Assembly (NCBI GenBank): GCA_963768655.1
Contig: CAVYIM010000005.1
Location: 416,001-480,000 of the forward strand
DNA from: an uncultured Chloroflexia bacterium
Lineage (GTDB): Bacteria > Chloroflexota > Limnocylindria > Limnocylindrales > CSP1-4
Direction of reading: 5' to 3'
Length of the DNA: 64,000 bases
The position numbers and the translations under genes are program-made. The stretch's first letter is position 1. Each line of letters opens with the position of its first letter. The notes beneath the pieces were generated by a model. That model saw nothing but the letters and a program-made list of their open reading frames with translations, ran no database searches and was not told the origin of the DNA. Below are positions 1,160 to 59,002 of the stretch, piece by piece.

Positions 1160-1912
1160 TCATACGGTCGTCAGGATCTCGGGGCCGTGGTCGGTCACGG
1201 CGATCGTGTGCTCGAAATGGGCGGCCAGCGAATGATCCGTGGTCACCACGGTCCATCCGTCGGCCAGCGTCTCTACGTCCGCGCTGCCCAGGGTGAGCAT
1301 CGGCTCGATGGCCATGCAGACTCCGGGCGCCAACTCGATGCCACGGTTGCCGGTCCGGTAGTTCGGAATCTGCAGATCCTCGTGCATCCGGGTTCCGATG
1401 CCATGGCCGACGTACGGCCGGACGATCCCGCACTTGCCTTCCAGGGCCACATCCTCGACGGCGCCCGAGACGTCCTCGATGTGATGGCCGGGGACGGCGG
1501 CCGCGATGCCGGCCATCAAGGCCAGCCGCGTCGTCCGGATGAGCCGATCGACGTCCTTCGGCGGCGTACCGACGTAGAAGGTCCGGGCGCCGTCGCCGTG
1601 GTACCCCTGCCAGATCGCGCCGGCATCGATCGAGACGACCTGGCCCTCCGTGATGACCCGCTTGCCGGGTATCCCGTGAACCACTTCGGAGTCGATCGAG
1701 ACGCAGATGCAGGCCGGGAAGCCGCGATAGCCCTTGAACGAGGGCCGGGCCCCGGCCTTGCGGATGTAGCTCTCGGCAACGGCATCGAGGTCGGCCGTGG
1801 TCACCCCCGGCTTGAGCGCCTCTTCGACAGCGGCGAGGACCTCGGCCACGATGCGTCCGGCGCGGCGCATCAGAGCGATCTCCTCGCGTGATCTGCGGAC
1901 AACCGTCGCCAT
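1160..1912 (-). CDS. map: methionine aminopeptidase type I
   Basis: VVHGIP, DAG...GDGA, GHGIG...HE, AIEPM, AHFEHT motifs. Confidence 0.96.
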   Translation of the reverse strand: MATVVRRSREEIALMRRAGRIVAEVLAAVEEALKPGVTTADLDAVAESYIRKAGARPSFKGYRGFPACICVSIDSEVVHGIPGKRVITEGQVVSIDAGAIWQGYHGDGARTFYVGTPPKDVDRLIRTTRLALMAGIAAAVPGHHIEDVSGAVEDVALEGKCGIVRPYVGHGIGTRMHEDLQIPNYRTGNRGIELAPGVCMAIEPMLTLGSADVETLADGWTVVTTDHSLAAHFEHTIAVTDHGPEILTTV

Positions 1913-48820: not shown

Positions 48821-49064
48821 GGCCTTGCGGCCTCGGCCGGCCAGATGCCGGCTGCCCAGCGATCCGCTGGTCGGTGAGCTGTCCTGGCTCACGGATCAGA
48901 GGAGCGATGAAGGTCCAGACACCAAACGACGGCTCGATCGTTGCCGAGCCGCCGTTCTCACAGCGTTGCGTCTCGAGCTTGCTTGGGGCGTCTGGCCCCG
49001 ATATTCATTTTGATCGCTTGTGCGTCGGAGGCAGTTGACCGGTCCTCCAGCTGGCTCCGGGTTG

Positions 49065-49137
49065 TGGAGACGAGGAGACTCGAACTCCTGACCCTCTCCT
49101 TGCAAAGGAGATGCTCTGCCAACTGAGCTACGTCCCC
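49065..49137 (-). tRNA. tRNA-Ala (TGC), CCA not encoded
   Basis: GGGGACG acceptor with G3:U70, loop TTTGCAA; followed by CAA rather than CCA. Confidence 0.96.
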
Positions 49138-49151
49138 AGGCGGCAAGGGAG

Positions 49152-49228
49152 TGGTGGGCGACACTGGACTCGAACCAGTGACCTCTGCCTTATCAGGGCA
49201 GCGCTCTAACCAGCTGAGCTAGTCGCCC
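49152..49228 (-). tRNA. tRNA-Ile (GAT)
   Basis: Loop CTGATAA, CCA end. Confidence 0.97.
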
Positions 49229-52798: not shown

Positions 52799-54469
52799 TC
52801 AACCTACGTCGCCCACGTCGATCGCGTCGTCGCCGTAGATCCGTTTGAACTCGGTCAGCAGGCGGGAGCTGTCTGGGTCCTCGGGCAGCGGCGCGACCTC
52901 GACGTTCGCGGCTACGCAGCGCACGGACACGGGCATGCCTAGAACGCGGCTGACGCCGTCCTCCAGGATCGGACGGCGGCGATCGGCGACATCCTTGAAG
53001 AAGCTCTGGGTCTCCGGGAAGCCCAGCGTGACGACATTGCCGTCGACGCTGACGGGGCGGCAGGCGACGATGAGCGGCCGCGTCGGCGGGCTCTTGCTGA
53101 TGACCTCGACGATCTCGGCCCAGCGCTCCAGCAGCAGGGCGAGCGTCGGCCCGGACCGTGTGCCAGGGGCGGTCGAAGGCGCAGGCTCACTGCGAGCCGG
53201 AGGGACGGCCGGAGCCGAACTGGCGGCCGGGGCCGGATGCGCGGCCGGGGCCGACACATCGGCCGGAGCCGCTGGCGGGGGCGGGGCCGAAGACGGGCGC
53301 TCGGCCGAACGTTCTGGCGCGGCCGAAGGCACCCGTGCGGGGACCGGCGCCCGAACCGCGGGTCGCTCCAGGGGCGCGGGTGCGGGCGCATACGCGGGTG
53401 CGGCCGCGGAGATCGCGGCGGTTCCAACGGGCGCCAGCAGGGCCAGCTCCAGCTGGAGGCGCAAGCCGCCGGCACCGGGATGGGCCATGTCGATCGAGGC
53501 CAGGCGCCGGGCGGCTGCCGACAGAGCGCCGGGGCCGGCGGACGCAAGCCCCGAGGGCGTTCCGCGACCCAGCGACGAAAGCAGCGCCAGCCGCAACCCC
53601 TCGATGGCCTGCTCCGTGAAGGCGCGCAGGTCGCGGCCTCGCTCCTCCAGCCCGTCGAGTATCTCGATGCCGGCGACGGCCTCGCCGCCGACCAGCGCTT
53701 CGAGAAAAGCCTCGACCGTCTCCTCCTCGACCAGACCCAGTACGTCGCGAACGTGGTCCGCCGTCAGATCGCCGGCATCAGTGCCGAGGAGCTGGTCGAG
53801 CATCGACTCGGCGTCGCGCATGCCGCCGGCGGCCAGGCGGGCGATCAGGTCGATCGCCTCCGGCTCAGCCGTTCGGCCGTCGGCCGCCAGGATCGTCCGC
53901 AGCTTGCCGCCGATCTCGCCCACGGTCAGCCGCCGGAAGTCGAAGCGCTGAACCCGCGAAACGACGGCCGGCCGGATCTGGGTGCTGTCGGTGGTGCAGA
54001 AGACGAAGACGACGTGGTCGGGCGGCTCTTCGAGGGTCTTGAGCAGGACGTCCCAGCCCTCGCGGATCCGTTGGACTTCATCGACAATGAAGACCTTGAC
54101 GGTCAGGTCCGAAGGCGCGGTGTAGATCCGGGGCAGGAGCTCGCGCATGTCGTCAACGCGGTTGTTCGAGGCCGCGTCCATCTCGCTGACGTCGAGGGCG
54201 CGGCCGTCGCGAATGGCCACGCAGGCGGGGCACTCGTCGCACGGCTCGCCGTCACGAAGGTTCGAGCAGTTGAGCGCCTTCGCCAGGATTCGCGCCATCG
54301 AAGTCTTGCCGGTTCCGCGCGGACCGACGAACAGATAGGCATGGGCGGTCCGGCCCGAGCGCACGGCGTTGCGCAGCGTCTCGACGACCGCCTGCTGGCC
54401 GACGATCTGGCCGAACGTCTGGGCGCGCCAGCGGCGATAGATGGCCTGGTGCTGTGGTGTCGAGCTCAC
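52799..54469 (-). CDS. dnaX: DNA polymerase III subunit gamma/tau
   Basis: YRRWR, GPRGTGKTS, CDECPAC, DAASN, LKTLEEPP, GGMRDA. Confidence 0.97.
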   Translation of the reverse strand: MSSTPQHQAIYRRWRAQTFGQIVGQQAVVETLRNAVRSGRTAHAYLFVGPRGTGKTSMARILAKALNCSNLRDGEPCDECPACVAIRDGRALDVSEMDAASNNRVDDMRELLPRIYTAPSDLTVKVFIVDEVQRIREGWDVLLKTLEEPPDHVVFVFCTTDSTQIRPAVVSRVQRFDFRRLTVGEIGGKLRTILAADGRTAEPEAIDLIARLAAGGMRDAESMLDQLLGTDAGDLTADHVRDVLGLVEEETVEAFLEALVGGEAVAGIEILDGLEERGRDLRAFTEQAIEGLRLALLSSLGRGTPSGLASAGPGALSAAARRLASIDMAHPGAGGLRLQLELALLAPVGTAAISAAAPAYAPAPAPLERPAVRAPVPARVPSAAPERSAERPSSAPPPPAAPADVSAPAAHPAPAASSAPAVPPARSEPAPSTAPGTRSGPTLALLLERWAEIVEVISKSPPTRPLIVACRPVSVDGNVVTLGFPETQSFFKDVADRRRPILEDGVSRVLGMPVSVRCVAANVEVAPLPEDPDSSRLLTEFKRIYGDDAIDVGDVG

Positions 54470-54540
54470 GCTGCTCCTGCCGGCACGGGCAAGACGAGGG
54501 GCGGCGCCGCCGGCGCTGTCCGCCGGCCGCCGGGTCGAGT

Positions 54541-54806
54541 GCCGTGCACCCTCCGTCGACCGACCGTTCCCGTGCCCACCAGTTGAGGCAGCTCAGACCA
54601 GGCCATTCCGCGGCACCCGACGATCATCGCTTAGTGCTGCTTCCTTCCGGACCTGACACGCTTCGCGAGCCGCCGCTGCGCGGGACCCGGCCCTCAACGT
54701 CACCACAAGCGGCGGCCTTCGAGGACGGGGACCTCGGGAGGGAATTCAGCCCTGCTGGAGCGGATTGCAGGTTACAGGGCACCGCTAGTTCCCCGCCTAG
54801 CACGGC
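54541..54806 (-). ncRNA. ffs: signal recognition particle RNA, large (Alu-containing) bacterial type
   Basis: Helix 8 TGTCAGGTCCGGAAGGAAGCAGCA; 5' GCCGTGCTAGGCGGGGAA...CCTGTAACCTGCAATCCGC Alu part; ends pair (GCCGTGC/GCACGGC); TGCTATGAT promoter upstream. Confidence 0.93.
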
Positions 54807-54892
54807 CCGAGAATCATAGCAGCAGCCGGTGCCGGAGCCGAGCCTCGGCCTGGAGCGACGCGCGCGCGGCACCACGGCGACATGGAAACGAG

Positions 54893-54980
54893 TGGCGGAG
54901 AGGGAGGGATTTGAACCCTCGATGGGTTGCCCCATACCGCATTTCCAGTGCGGCGCCCTAGGCCACTAGGCGACCTCTCC
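54893..54980 (-). tRNA. tRNA-Ser (GGA)
   Basis: Loop CTGGAAA, long variable arm, GCCA end. Confidence 0.96.
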
Positions 54981-55047
54981 GCGAAGACGGCCCGCGCGAC
55001 GGGCAGATCGCCGACCGGCCGGGCCGGCGACCCGGGAACCGAGAGAG

Positions 55048-55133
<86 letters not shown>

Positions 55134-55211
55134 GCGCGAGAGAATACCAGAGCCCGGCGAGGCGTCTGCCGATGGGAGCGGTGGACGGGGCCGATCGCTC
55201 CGCCGACCGGT

Positions 55212-55694
55212 TCAGCCGGCTGCCGTCCTGAGGCGCTCGGTAGCGCGCAGGCTTTCGACCGGGCCGGCCTTGACGAAGAGCTCTTCGGCCTCCTCGCAGC
55301 GGATGCCGCTGACGACCTTGAGCTTGCGCGACAGCCGCGTTTCCTGGGCGAGCTGAATCGCCCCGCCGGCCGCGCCGTCGACCAAGTTGGAGACGGCGAA
55401 GACCAGCGCCTCGACGTCGCAAGCCAGGAGAGCCCCGACGCACATCGGGCACGGCTCACGGGTGACGAAGATCGTGGCGTCGGCCAGGCGGACGCGGCCG
55501 AGCTTTCGAGCGGCCTCGCGCAGGGCGACGATAACCGCGTGGGCGGTGGGATCGTTGCATTCCTGGACCCTGTCGTGGGCCCGGGCCACCATGGCGTCGC
55601 TGACGACCGCGACGGCGCCGATCGGGGCCTTGCCCTGGTCGAGCGCGAGTTGGGCCTCGGCCAGAGCCTCTCCCATGAACAGCTCGTAGTTCAT
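55212..55694 (-). CDS. tadA: TadA-family deaminase lacking the catalytic Glu (HAV instead of HAE)
   Basis: Start MNYELFMGEAL; PIGAV, DPTAHAV, EPCPMC, GAAG; lies upstream of SRP RNA-dnaX as tadA does in Bacillus. Confidence 0.85.
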   Translation of the reverse strand: MNYELFMGEALAEAQLALDQGKAPIGAVAVVSDAMVARAHDRVQECNDPTAHAVIVALREAARKLGRVRLADATIFVTREPCPMCVGALLACDVEALVFAVSNLVDGAAGGAIQLAQETRLSRKLKVVSGIRCEEAEELFVKAGPVESLRATERLRTAAG

Positions 55695-55776
55695 GGGCGG
55701 ATCATACAGGCCCGCGGCGTCGAAAATGGGCTCGGGAAGCCCGTTACCGGCCGGCGGGCCGCGCACTGGATCGCAC

Positions 55777-56712
55777 TCAGTCCCGTGCCGGGTCGGGCGG
55801 GGCCGCCGGCTCCGACAGCTCCGAGTCCGGCGGGGCCGCCGGGGCCGACAGCTCGCGAATGGCCCGGGCCACGACCGACATGTCCTCGTCGCCGTGGCCG
55901 CCGTCGAGCAGCCGATCCTCCAGGGCCGCGGCCAGCATCGCCGTCGGAAGCATGACACCGGTTTCGCCGGCCATCTCGAGGGCGATCCCAAGGTCCTTGC
56001 GGTGCAGCGCCAGGCGGAAGCCGAGCGGGTACTCGTCATCGATCATCCGGCCGCTCCGGTTCGCCAGGACCCAGCTCGCGGCCGCGCCGCCCGACAGGGC
56101 TTCCACAAGGCGGCTCGGATCGAGCCCCGCCCGAATGCCCAGGACGATGCCCTCAGCCACGCCCAGATAGGCCCCGGCGATGATCACCTGGTTCACTGCC
56201 TTGGCGGCCTGGCCGTTGCCGAGCGGCCCGAGGTGAGTGACGGTCCGTCCGATCACCTCCAGGACGGGCCGAGCCCGCGCGACGTCGGCGTCGGAGCCGC
56301 CGGCGAAGATGGTCAGAGTGCCCAGTCGGGCGCCCTCCGAGCCGCCCGAGACGGGGGCGTCCACCATGCCGATGCCACGTTCCGCCAGGCGGCGGCCGAA
56401 CTGGCGGGTCGCGGCCGGAGCGATGGTCGAACAGTCGATGACGAGGGATCCGGCGGCGGCGCCCGTGGCCACTCCGCCCGGACCGAAGAGGACGGACGCG
56501 ACGTCCGGGCTGTCCGAGACGCAGACGACGACGACGTCCGAGGAGGCGGCCAGCTCCGCGGGACTCGCGGCCTCGCGCGCGCCGAGCTCGAGGAGTGCCG
56601 CGGCACGCCCGGGCGTTCTATTCCAGACGGTGAGCGGCGCACCCGCCCGAGCCAGGTTGGCGGCCATCGAGGCGCCCATGGTGCCGAGCCCCACGAACCC
56701 GATCCGTTCCAC
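55777..56712 (-). CDS. beta-hydroxyacid dehydrogenase (3-hydroxyisobutyrate DH/GarR family)
   Basis: GTG start after SD GAAGGAG; IGFVGLGTMG, WNRT, DAPVSGG, KAVNQ, KDL. Confidence 0.92.
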   Translation of the reverse strand: MERIGFVGLGTMGASMAANLARAGAPLTVWNRTPGRAAALLELGAREAASPAELAASSDVVVVCVSDSPDVASVLFGPGGVATGAAAGSLVIDCSTIAPAATRQFGRRLAERGIGMVDAPVSGGSEGARLGTLTIFAGGSDADVARARPVLEVIGRTVTHLGPLGNGQAAKAVNQVIIAGAYLGVAEGIVLGIRAGLDPSRLVEALSGGAAASWVLANRSGRMIDDEYPLGFRLALHRKDLGIALEMAGETGVMLPTAMLAAALEDRLLDGGHGDEDMSVVARAIRELSAPAAPPDSELSEPAAPPDPARD

Positions 56713-57945: not shown

Positions 57946-58822
57946 TCGGCGCCGGCGGAGCGCGACACGGACGCGACTGCTGTCGCTCCTGGCGCTGGCG
58001 GCCGTGCTCGCCTTCACGCGTCCGGGCAGGCGCGCCGTCCGGCGGCTGGCGCTGCTGATCGATTCTCATGTCGAGGGCGCCGCGGAGCCGGATGCACGCG
58101 GCTATGCGCGCTTCATCGCGCCGGTGTTTCGCCGGCTGTATGAGCGTGTGACCGATGACGTGGCCTCCGAGCTGGAGGGCCGAACTGGCGTCGACGGCGG
58201 CCGCGGCGGCGGCGACAACGGCGCCGGCGGCAGAGGCGGCCGAGGCAGCGACGGCGGCCGCGGCGGCGGCAACGGCCGCGATCTCACGATCCTGGACGTG
58301 GGCTGCGGACCGGGCGACCTGGCCGCAATGCTGTCCGAACGACTGCCGGAGGCGCGCGTGTGCGGCGTCGACCTCGCGCCGAGTATGGTCGAGCTGGCGA
58401 GGCAGAAGGCGACGGACGACGGCCGGCTCGGCTTCGAAGGCGGAGACGTGGCCGACCTGCCATTCGAATCCGGATCGTTCGACCTGGTCGTCTCGACGCT
58501 CAGCCTGCACCACTGGCCGGACCCTGGGGCCGGTTTCGCCGAGATCGCGCGGGTGCTTCGACCCGGTGGCGTCGCTCTCATCTACGACCTCCGCCTGGTG
58601 ACACTGGAGGCGGAAAGGCTGACCGAGGTTGCGCGTCGGGCCGGGCTGCCGGCCTCGGTGCTTCGGCGTGAGCGCCTCCGCGGCGGCATCCTCGCCGGCC
58701 TGTTCGTCCGTTTCCGCGTCGATCGCCCGGTCGGCGGAGGATCGACCGACTTCTCGCCCGCTGCGGGGGCAGCGGGCCATGCTAGAATTCCGGCCGCTGT
58801 GACTCCTGGAGAGGTCGCATAG
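57932..58822 (+). CDS. class I SAM-dependent methyltransferase with N-terminal hydrophobic helix and Gly-rich insert
   Basis: ILDVGCGPG, GVDLAPSM, LPFESGSFDLVVS, RVLRPGG. Confidence 0.88.
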   Translation: MSAADRRRRSATRTRLLSLLALAAVLAFTRPGRRAVRRLALLIDSHVEGAAEPDARGYARFIAPVFRRLYERVTDDVASELEGRTGVDGGRGGGDNGAGGRGGRGSDGGRGGGNGRDLTILDVGCGPGDLAAMLSERLPEARVCGVDLAPSMVELARQKATDDGRLGFEGGDVADLPFESGSFDLVVSTLSLHHWPDPGAGFAEIARVLRPGGVALIYDLRLVTLEAERLTEVARRAGLPASVLRRERLRGGILAGLFVRFRVDRPVGGGSTDFSPAAGAAGHARIPAAVTPGEVA

Positions 58823-58900
58823 TCGGTCTAGTGCAGCGGTTTGCTAAACCGCCAGGTGGGGTAACCTGCCTCGAGGGTTCGAATCCCTCCCTCTCCGCCA
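58808..58900 (+). tRNA. tRNA-Ser (GCT)
   Basis: Loop TTGCTAA, long variable arm, GCCA end; TGCTAGAAT promoter at about 58780. Confidence 0.96.
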
Positions 58901-58926: not shown

Positions 58927-59002
58927 GCGCCCGTAGCTCAGTGGATAGAGCGTCAGGTTGCGGACCTGAAGGCCGTGGGTTCGAGTCCCGCCGGGCGCGC
59001 CA
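58927..59002 (+). tRNA. tRNA-Arg (GCG)
   Basis: GCGCCCG acceptor, A20 in D-loop, anticodon arm TCAGG-TTGCGGA-CCTGA, CCA end. Confidence 0.95.

Follow-up and report, generated by a model that had tools for sequence, protein, structure and literature searches.

The stretch of DNA analysed here (the window) comprises 64,000 nucleotides of an uncultured bacterium of the class Limnocylindria, phylum Chloroflexota (positions 416,001 to 480,000 of contig CAVYIM010000005.1, assembly GCA_963768655.1). On its minus strand lies an open reading frame (ORF) derived from tadA, the gene for the deaminase that edits adenosine 34 (A34) of tRNA-Arg(ACG) to inosine. An earlier note, made from the sequence alone, had described this ORF as an intact TadA that appears catalytically dead and is nevertheless retained. 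The analysis reported here supports a similar view, in which the product is probably a protein of TadA fold that has given up tRNA deamination and is retained for another task. The features of the ORF are as follows.

55212-55694, minus strand: tadA-derived ORF of 160 amino acids, with HAV replacing HAE (translation, Pfam and NCBIfam searches, AlphaFold2, Foldseek)
55533-55535, minus strand: codon 54, GTT, Val at the site of the catalytic Glu (codon reading, ortholog columns)
55440-55541, minus strand: stretch spanning the three zinc ligands, His52 (55539-55541), Cys82 (55449-55451) and Cys85 (55440-55442)
55572-55574, minus strand: codon 41, GAC, Asp for the canonical strand-2 Asn (alignment columns)

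The ORF is full length, as the earlier note had held. Its 160 codons contain no internal stop, codons 52 to 54 (CAC GCG GTT) specify His-Ala-Val within DPTAHAV, and residues 80 to 85 read E80-P81-C82-P83-M84-C85, with both cysteines of PCPMC in place. The other departures from typical TadA that the note had listed (GKAP, AHD, NLVD and LSR) are all present in the protein and map to the canonically conserved V23, N41, D103/K105 and N122/H123. All three zinc ligands are invariant across 90 sequences from the family that holds the window (f1), 20 from f4 and 24 from f3 and f5; f2 to f5 denote other families of class Limnocylindria, and G000 is the window's own genome. A 275-amino-acid ORF on the same strand (55212-56039) was rejected as an artefact of high GC content, the MNYEL N-terminus and a promoter element described below setting the start at 55694. 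Many long overlapping frames occur on both strands of the window, as is typical of DNA with 69% G+C, where ORF length alone is misleading.

The loss of the glutamate is fixed across two families, f1 and f4. Among 80 related loci of named public genomes (67-94% identity), 78 have HAV and 2 have HAI, and PCxxC is present in all. Within the genus, an ortholog was found in 21 of the 24 other genomes (75-96% identity), and the 22 full-length genus copies divide into 20 with HAV and 2 with HAI, both from G008. None of these loci or copies has HAE, a result that also rules out a sequencing error at codon 54. Twenty f4 copies that we read are 145-147 amino acids long, 50-61% identical to the window protein and all HAV, and position 54 is Glu in 24/24 TadA sequences from the sister families f3 and f5. 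One HAV copy in the genus (L027/L031, G014:C198) lacks residues 70-127, reflecting either a real loss or an assembly fault in a 69%-complete metagenome-assembled genome.

At the level of the class, 201 genomes of at least 85% completeness were searched with DNA patterns. The DPTAHA[V/I/M] pattern, which misses a Glu-less TadA with any other flanking motif, was found in G000, in 64 of 72 f1 genomes and in 74 of 79 f4 genomes, compared with 0 of 10 in f2, 1 of 38 in f3 and 0 of 1 in f5. The sole f3 match comes from a genome with 6% contamination in which HAE also occurs, and it sits on one of that genome's small contigs. In a tree of 92 sequences, f1, f4 and seven metagenome representatives are separated from HAE TadA by one branch of length 0.67, with a Shimodaira-Hasegawa-like approximate likelihood ratio (SH-aLRT) support of 99, and the f3 and f5 proteins group with ordinary HAE TadA. 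Three further Glu-less proteins from metagenomes (P0152, P0159 and P0173, with HAV, HAA and HPI) sit on long branches outside the HAV clade, where their placement is unsure; the HAA protein lacks the first Cys of PCxxC. Pattern matches in 5 of 266 other Chloroflexota genomes were set aside as chance, all of them in non-deaminase frames.

The surroundings of the ORF establish its ancestry. The relevant features are listed below.

55048-55133, minus strand: tRNA-Ser(CGA), 78 nt downstream of the ORF; found downstream in 75 of 80 related loci and 20 of 20 f4 loci
54893-54980, minus strand: tRNA-Ser(GGA), the second downstream tRNA; 73 of 80 loci have both Ser tRNAs
52799-54469, minus strand: putative dnaX-like gene beyond the tRNA-Ser pair, a synteny marker (clamp-loader motifs read in the translation)
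55701-55706, minus strand: TATGAT, a -10-like hexamer with a 5/6 match to TATAAT, its end 6 nt upstream of the ATG (ortholog upstream alignment)
58808-58900, plus strand: tRNA-Ser(GCT), in tandem with tRNA-Arg(GCG); the same tandem occurs in 46 of 80 loci and in f4 and f2
58927-59002, plus strand: tRNA-Arg(GCG) (tRNA call), anticodon loop UUGCGGA, 3.2 kb from the ORF start

The HAE-type tadA genes of G052 (f5) and G047 (f3) are followed by tRNA-Ser(CGA) and then tRNA-Ser(GGA), and the HAV gene is followed by the same two tRNA genes in the window, in those 73 loci and in f4 loci; the order involving the dnaX-like gene also recurs in f4 locus L178. Because this gene order is common to HAE-type tadA, the HAV gene is tadA itself, altered in place, and the window ORF is a positional ortholog and direct descendant of tadA. 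The note's placement of the gene at the ancestral tadA locus, with a tRNA-Arg(GCG) about 3 kb away, is thus borne out. Families f1 and f4 differ in the protein gene upstream, and no conserved protein-coding neighbour that would indicate a partner emerged from the comparison of f1 and f4 loci. A tRNA-Ala(UGC) and a tRNA-Ile(GAU), the usual spacer pair of rRNA operons, adjoin each other at 49064-49228 (minus strand) of the window, and several related loci have this pair at a distance of about 6 kb past the gene.

The hexamer that the note had called a -10 box lies within CCTGTATGATC, which most of the 110 distinct upstream regions of orthologs keep at this site, between flanks that vary. Its spacing suggests that TATGAT is probably the promoter of a leaderless mRNA; no Shine-Dalgarno-like string precedes the ATG of the window ORF. 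A generic promoter and terminator scan of 54400-56200, which needs a -35/-10 pair, returned nothing. Contigs from three wetland metatranscriptome datasets, 85-90% alike, cover the ORF, and one of 688 nt joins it to the upstream gene; they hint that orthologs are transcribed, with DNA carry-over as a possible source. In these datasets only about 0.07-0.10 of the sampled words were present and the contigs come from relatives (85-99% alike), and depth cannot rank expression. RNA coverage was almost nil in bins 55196-55239 and 55724-55811, from which we drew no inference.

Selection on the gene was gauged from pairwise ratios of nonsynonymous to synonymous divergence (dN/dS) by the Nei-Gojobori method (NG86), using 90 distinct f1 coding sequences (4005 pairs); the estimate is not tree-based and the pairs are non-independent. 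Median dN/dS was 0.07 for dS below 0.3 (10 pairs), 0.16 for dS of 0.3-0.6 (91 pairs), 0.20 for 0.6-1.0 (1942 pairs), 0.16 for 1.0-1.5 (1792 pairs) and 0.12 above 1.5 (170 pairs), with a maximum of 0.49 in any bin. In the same bins, the twenty f4 sequences gave 0.11-0.24 and the 24 catalytically intact f3/f5 TadA sequences 0.17-0.34. The inactive form is at least as constrained as the active TadA of its sister families, and the ratio near 1 that the note had named as a sign of simple decay was not seen.

These values weigh heavily against the alternative that the gene is a decaying pseudogene, or that its frame stays open only because the promoter or transcript of the tRNA-Ser genes downstream lies in its DNA. 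Decay would be natural for a deaminase whose function is not needed, and the position of the ORF, 78 nt upstream of two same-strand tRNA genes with no terminator-like site in between, would suit the second version; one genus member also bears the internal deletion described above. A dN/dS of 0.07-0.24 over hundreds to thousands of pairs is hard to reconcile with either, as are the positions shared with canonical TadA (23, listed below), the further ones conserved only in the HAV clade, and the intact state of 102/102 filtered copies, the filter having dropped copies not beginning at residue 1, not reaching residue 139 or not ending in a stop. Real decay in this class, to which we return below, takes a different form, a deletion remnant in G137 and outright absence in f2, G044 and G085. 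We regard the pseudogene explanation as extremely improbable.

If this lineage gave up inosine decoding, as the earlier note had proposed, the HAV protein should go together with a G34 tRNA for the CGN codons. A pattern spanning the D-arm and anticodon loop of tRNA-Arg, in an ACG and a GCG version, was counted in the same 201 genomes.

G000: ACG pattern no, GCG pattern yes
f1: ACG pattern 0 of 72, GCG pattern 65 of 72
f2: ACG pattern 0 of 10, GCG pattern 10 of 10
f3: ACG pattern 26 of 38, GCG pattern 3 of 38
f4: ACG pattern 0 of 79, GCG pattern 75 of 79
f5: ACG pattern 0 of 1, GCG pattern 0 of 1

The DPTAHAE pattern was present in 31 of 38 f3 genomes and in the one f5 genome, compared with 11 of 72 in f1 and 10 of 79 in f4. 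By these counts, HAV tracks tRNA-Arg(GCG) and HAE tracks tRNA-Arg(ACG). The tallies include genomes marked as unpublished (G093 and G112 in f3; G119, G128, G152, G191 and G203 in f4); when they are left out, f3 has HAE in 29/36 and ACG in 24/36, f4 has GCG in 72/74 and HAV in 71/74, and the picture is unchanged. All listed GCG matches have the loop UUGCGGA, with U32, where ACG tRNAs have C32. In G052, the f5 holder of an HAE TadA, neither an ACG nor a GCG Arg tRNA was found. The tRNA-Arg(GCG) gene comes after tRNA-Ser(GCU) in f1, f2 and f4, and in f3 tRNA-Arg(ACG) or (GCG) stands in tandem with tRNA-Arg(UCG) (L129, L135, L137, L214-L216). An attempt to trace the origin of tRNA-Arg(GCG) by sequence likeness failed, since the Arg isoacceptors of one genome share acceptor stems and likeness follows the genome. 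A call of "tRNA-His(AUG)" in locus L078 was dropped as a poor ARAGORN model with mismatched stems.

The window's genome conforms to this pattern. G000 measures 3.37 Mb in 9 contigs, with 69% G+C and 88.6% completeness, and the window lies on contig C5. Proteins and loci nearly identical to those of the window bear the names of Chloroflexota metagenome-assembled genomes, for the most part "Candidatus Limnocylindrales/Limnocylindria". None of the 51 ARAGORN tRNAs in this assembly has A34. Its Arg tRNAs are GCG, UCG, CCG, CCU and UCU, of which GCG is the only one of the GCG/ACG type; every four-codon box is served by G34, U34 and C34 tRNAs, the CGN box alike. In 869 long ORFs rich in third-position G+C, CGC makes up 42% of Arg codons, more than any other. 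Searching the whole genome with PF00383 gave three places: the window ORF, a 202-amino-acid HAE protein that is a putative dCMP deaminase and a 155-amino-acid CAE protein that is a putative cytidine deaminase adjoining a nucleoside phosphorylase gene, the last two assigned by motif reading. The search for a second HAE-type TadA, suggested in the note, was negative in this 88.6%-complete assembly: the TadA model returned only the window ORF and a 17.8-bit trace.

The tRNA set of G000 has another unusual side. It includes a tRNA-Ile(UAU) and only two CAU tRNAs, and the best match to TilS scores 22.7 bits against a cut-off of 93.6 bits (C4:52613-52801). The lineage may read AUA without lysidine, which would be a second break with the usual bacterial set of wobble modifications.

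Other Limnocylindria provide natural controls for what follows when G34 replaces A34. The f2 genomes (1.0-1.4 Mb) have tRNA-Arg(GCG) and no TadA homolog, with weak matches in 2 of 18 genomes (E value about 5e-4) and nothing TadA-like beside the tRNA-Ser pair. In f3, the genomes G044 (97% complete), G085 and G137 carry a tRNA-Arg(GCG) with an f3-type acceptor stem, in tandem with tRNA-Arg(UCG) and in the place where relatives have tRNA-Arg(ACG). No TadA was found in these three genomes, in which the weak matches of 27-42 bits lie mostly in putative RibD-like frames of 358-658 amino acids. The 27-bit match is a remnant of tadA in G137, upstream of the tRNA-Ser pair (L203, G137:C8:18203-21340, about 1423-1623, minus strand), in which an in-frame junction links residues 1-40 with residues 123-149 of an f3-type TadA, the core with HAE and PCxxC having been deleted. 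The switch to G34 arose more than once in the class. Because f2, G044 and G085 are without tadA and G137 has only a remnant, tadA decays once G34 replaces A34; the f1 and f4 lineage, in which the gene stayed, is the exception.

Pfam searches with the window protein gave MafB19-deam at 90.5 bits and dCMP_cyt_deam_1 at 79.2 bits, and the TadA equivalog NF008113 was the sole good match in NCBIfam, at 101.9 bits, below its curated cut-off of 150 bits. An AlphaFold2 model from a 109-row alignment has a predicted local distance difference test (pLDDT) score of 92.7 and a predicted template modelling (pTM) score of 0.88. Its top Foldseek matches are all TadA, with TM scores of 0.87-0.88 (Bacillus subtilis 7cph, Staphylococcus aureus 2b3j with RNA, Aquifex aeolicus 1wwr and Escherichia coli 1z3a), followed by ADAT2 and the deaminase domain of ADAT3 at 0.77-0.80; a phmmer search of PDB sequences gives a similar ranking, with TadA proteins as the best matches. 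Beyond strand 5 the model shows two helices, 133-143 and 146-150, of which the latter is of low confidence, with Glu residues present, and the Phe pair of f3 TadA in the C-terminal helix (columns 143-144) is A, G or P in the HAV clade, in a region of uncertain alignment.

A two-copy model reached an ipSAE (interaction prediction score from aligned errors) of 0.87, compared with 0.00 for the best of three controls, with contact agreement of at least 96% and partner pLDDT of at least 88. Among solved homo-pairs, 20 of 30 pass the mark applied to such models, as does 1 of 23 single chains; TadA dimers are already in the PDB, and the pass may reflect likeness only. Residues 43, 63 and 86, all of them clade-specific or switched, belong to the predicted interface. 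On the strength of this model, the window protein is probably homodimeric.

The note had suggested that the protein might partner another deaminase. Some f1 and f4 genomes do hold extra HAE genes, and we asked what these are. Twenty of the 21 DPTAHAE matches in f1 and f4 were read (L138-L157): 13 are guanine deaminases, 3 and 2 belong to two further HAE types, 1 is of another type and 1 is a chance match. About one f1 or f4 genome in seven holds such an extra DPTAHAE gene. Most are guanine deaminases of the B. subtilis type, ending in PDR(V/I)(P/H)Y; two of these that were tested score 144-159 bits to the B. subtilis enzyme (1wkq) and at most 76 bits to TadA. On NCBIfam, all of the extra HAE paralogs match the TadA model at 66-86 bits, below its cut-off. 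TadA-specific motifs were seen in none of the 20 genes read, and none of these genes is in the window's genome.

A non-catalytic subunit that pairs with an active deaminase, as ADAT3 does with ADAT2, would explain a protein that has lost its Glu and kept its zinc ligands, the state of Tad3/ADAT3 in the available portion of Iyer et al. (PMC3239186), and the mouse ADAT3 deaminase domain is a fold match (TMq 0.77). Yet a partner is hard to find: no second TadA-like gene was found in the window's 88.6%-complete genome, and the few extra HAE paralogs of f1 and f4 occur in 11/72 and 10/79 genomes and are guanine deaminases in 13 of the 20 cases read. Such a complex would also have no A34 tRNA to edit, the window protein has no extra N-terminal domain, and the homodimer is confidently modelled. 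The partnering role is not favoured, and we consider a heterodimer distinctly improbable.

Which surfaces of the protein have been conserved bears on its function. The f3 and f5 proteins are ordinary TadA (118-132 bits to PF14437), with DVP(I/V)GA, G-H/R-N, DPTAHAE, VT-x-EPCAMCAGA, D-x-K and LNH. In all groups, 23 positions are conserved and identical, including D48-A53 with H52, R69-L70, E80-P81, C82, M84, C85, G87-A88 and G107. Relative to the 24 f3/f5 sequences, 5 positions are conserved but different (E54V, A74T, Y76F, A86V and V109A), and 38 are conserved in the active enzymes only. Against a second comparison set, of 56 diverse HAE representatives selected as canonical by H, E, C and C at these columns, the canonically conserved positions that are changed or relaxed in the HAV protein are V23, N41 (to D), E54 (to V), Y76 (to F), A86 (to V), R93 (to D), D103 (to N), S111, N122 and H123 (to R). 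Position 41 is Asn in 98-100% of the canonical sets and Asp in 100% of f1 and 80% of f4. Before strand 1, the window protein has K22-A23-P24, and E22 is found in only 52% of f1, where the canonical motif is D/E-V-P with V23 at 93-96%. The window protein has N103 and V105, where f3 TadA has Asp (88%) and Lys (88%); f4 keeps D103 and not the Lys. Core net charge is slightly more acidic in the HAV clade (medians of -5 and -4 vs -2 and -2.5), a difference too small to argue from.

Several of these positions are RNA contacts in active TadA. The available portion of Yokobori et al. (PMC3711424), whose S. aureus numbering equals that of the window protein plus 1, lists Arg94 as contacting the G36/G37 backbone, Lys106 and Asn123 the C32-A38 pair, and Asp104 the U33 ribose. 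In the HAV protein, the equivalent of Arg70 (R69) is kept, those of Arg94, Lys106 and Asn123 are lost, and that of Asp104 is Asn in f1 and Asp in f4. A complementary set of TadA clade signatures, given in the accessible text of Iyer et al. (PMC3239186), comprises an acidic residue before strand 1, the strand-2 Asn, EPCxMC, a basic residue after strand 4, and C-terminal helices with Glu and Phe. Of these, EPCxMC is kept in the HAV protein and the C-terminal helices appear to be; the acidic residue, the Asn and the basic residue are not kept, nor, it seems, is the Phe. As read from these alignments, the anticodon-loop surface has ceased to be maintained as such, and the zinc site and core are still maintained. 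Because several tRNA-contact residues are replaced, canonical binding of the anticodon loop is unlikely, and the RNA-binding role that the note had suggested is not favoured, at least in the manner of TadA.

The same conservation can be read in another way, namely that the protein is still an enzyme, whose zinc site either uses a different general base, such as Asp41, or acts on a different substrate, be it a free base, a nucleoside or some other nucleic acid. The zinc ligands are invariant, as are DPTAHA and EPCxMC, which line the pocket, N41 has become Asp in 100% of f1 and 80% of f4, and selection is as strong as on active TadA. Two observations speak against it: Asp41 has not become fixed in f4, and the hydrophobic residue of the TLE motif next to the pocket (position 79) is unconstrained across the HAV clade, where R, L, Q, H, E, V, I, M, T and D all occur. 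We know of no hydrolytic deaminase of the cytidine deaminase (CDA) fold that works without the helix-2 Glu, and Tad3, from which it is missing, is the textbook inactive case in the accessible text of Iyer et al. (PMC3239186). Continued catalysis therefore seems improbable to us. Missing its Glu, the window protein would be catalytically dead, and with the ligands retained it presumably still binds zinc.

Taken together, these observations favour a retained, zinc-containing and probably homodimeric TadA-fold pseudo-enzyme that has ceased to deaminate tRNA and is maintained for some other, non-catalytic task; we put the probability of this reading at roughly 0.8. The note's proposal that the lineage gave up inosine decoding and retained TadA in a role without catalysis fits the fixation of the change, the dN/dS values, the tRNA correlation, the failure to find a second TadA and the ancestral locus. 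In the proposed sequence of events, the CGN box would have come under tRNA-Arg(GCG), (UCG) and (CCG) in the common ancestor of f1 and f4, leaving no A34 tRNA, so that A34-to-inosine deamination would no longer be needed. The enzyme would then have lost its proton-shuttle Glu (E54V) and several tRNA-contact residues, with its fold, three zinc ligands, dimerisation surface and own promoter preserved, and would afterwards have evolved slowly under purifying selection. The Glu loss and the tRNA switch could have occurred in either order.

Several points count against this interpretation. At 88.6% completeness, a second TadA or an A34 tRNA could sit in the unassembled part of the window's genome. 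The patterns miss variants, and the roughly 5-10% of f1 and f4 genomes and 20-30% of f3 genomes without a match are indistinguishable from incompleteness. Five of the 151 f1 and f4 genomes carry an HAE paralog of uncertain type, with TadA as its closest relative of solved structure (55-71 bits). The gene is dispensable in some relatives, given the internal deletion in G014 and the absence from f2. Finally, the invariant DPTAHA and EPCxMC and the conserved Asp41 near the pocket also fit a ligand pocket that is still functional.

As to the job of the retained pseudo-enzyme, we suggest tentatively, at somewhat less than even odds, that it binds some ligand, nucleic acid or protein, different from the tRNA-Arg anticodon loop held in the canonical pose. 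A narrower version, that the HAV protein has become a re-tooled nucleic-acid binder, specific for the sequence or structure of a new target, is more doubtful and is offered as a lead only. It arises because a burst on the stem branch (0.67) was followed by a frozen state, because new conserved residues stand in for tRNA contacts, and because family f1 has Val101 and Asn103 (codons 101-103 of the ORF, 55386-55394, minus strand). We take these two residues to correspond to A106V and D108N (E. coli numbering), the changes that first let laboratory-evolved TadA accept DNA; f4 has Asp103, and the pair is not clade-wide. In the PDB sequence search, evolved DNA-editing TadA variants (8e2q and others) score 91.7 bits with the window protein vs 83.4 bits for wild-type E. 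coli TadA (1z3a).

The HAV protein differs from each of the known systems that it resembles. With bacterial TadA (2b3j, 1z3a, 1wwr and 7cph) it shares ancestry, locus, fold, zinc ligands, DPTAHA, EPCxMC, R69 and a predicted homodimer, but it has no catalytic Glu, its strand-2 Asn has become Asp, its tRNA contacts are replaced, its genome offers no A34 substrate and its score falls below the NCBIfam cut-off. ADAT3 has Val at the Glu site of HxE. In the portion of Iyer et al. available (PMC3239186), Tad3/ADAT3 is likewise a TadA-derived domain without the HxE Glu that has kept its zinc ligands and is retained by selection. ADAT3, however, is a paralog that pairs with an active subunit, bears an N-terminal tRNA-binding domain and belongs to an active editing complex, whereas the HAV protein is the only copy, consists of a deaminase domain alone in 160 amino acids, and has no partner that we could find and nothing to edit. 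Mollicutes living without TadA, in which tRNA-Arg(GCG) replaced the edited tRNA and tadA was lost (Yokobori et al. 2013, PMC3711424, accessible text), and the TadA-loss clades across bacteria described in the available part of Diwan and Agashe (2018, PMC6063277) parallel the loss of tadA in f2 and the three f3 genomes; f1 and f4, in contrast, keep tadA inactive under selection.

To our knowledge, TadA has been treated as a universal and often essential bacterial tRNA-editing enzyme whose known fates are to be active or to be lost. A search of the full-text literature, with subscription papers and supplements outside it, found no report of a conserved Glu-less bacterial TadA ortholog; what it did return concerned bacterial loss of TadA, replacement by tRNA-Arg(GCG) and the eukaryotic Tad3/ADAT3. 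The HAV protein would represent a third fate, in which the sole copy is kept over a family-level span without its catalytic residue or its substrate. Annotation is affected as well: at least 21 of 120 listed cluster representatives (of 4130 proteins found) carry the label "tRNA(adenine34) deaminase", which would lead to a wrong inference of inosine-based decoding in organisms with the HAV protein. TadA is also the scaffold of adenine base editors, which lends practical interest to a natural inactive variant whose nucleic-acid contacts have changed; should the lead of a re-tooled binder be true, it would be a natural non-editing reader of single-stranded DNA or RNA built on that scaffold. Limnocylindria are an abundant class in soil, peat and freshwater, and they offer a natural experiment within one class, with active TadA and tRNA-Arg(ACG), dead-but-kept TadA and tRNA-Arg(GCG), and no TadA with tRNA-Arg(GCG). 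The finding makes it possible to ask which roles the TadA fold can have besides deamination, and whether active TadA plays a hidden second role elsewhere.

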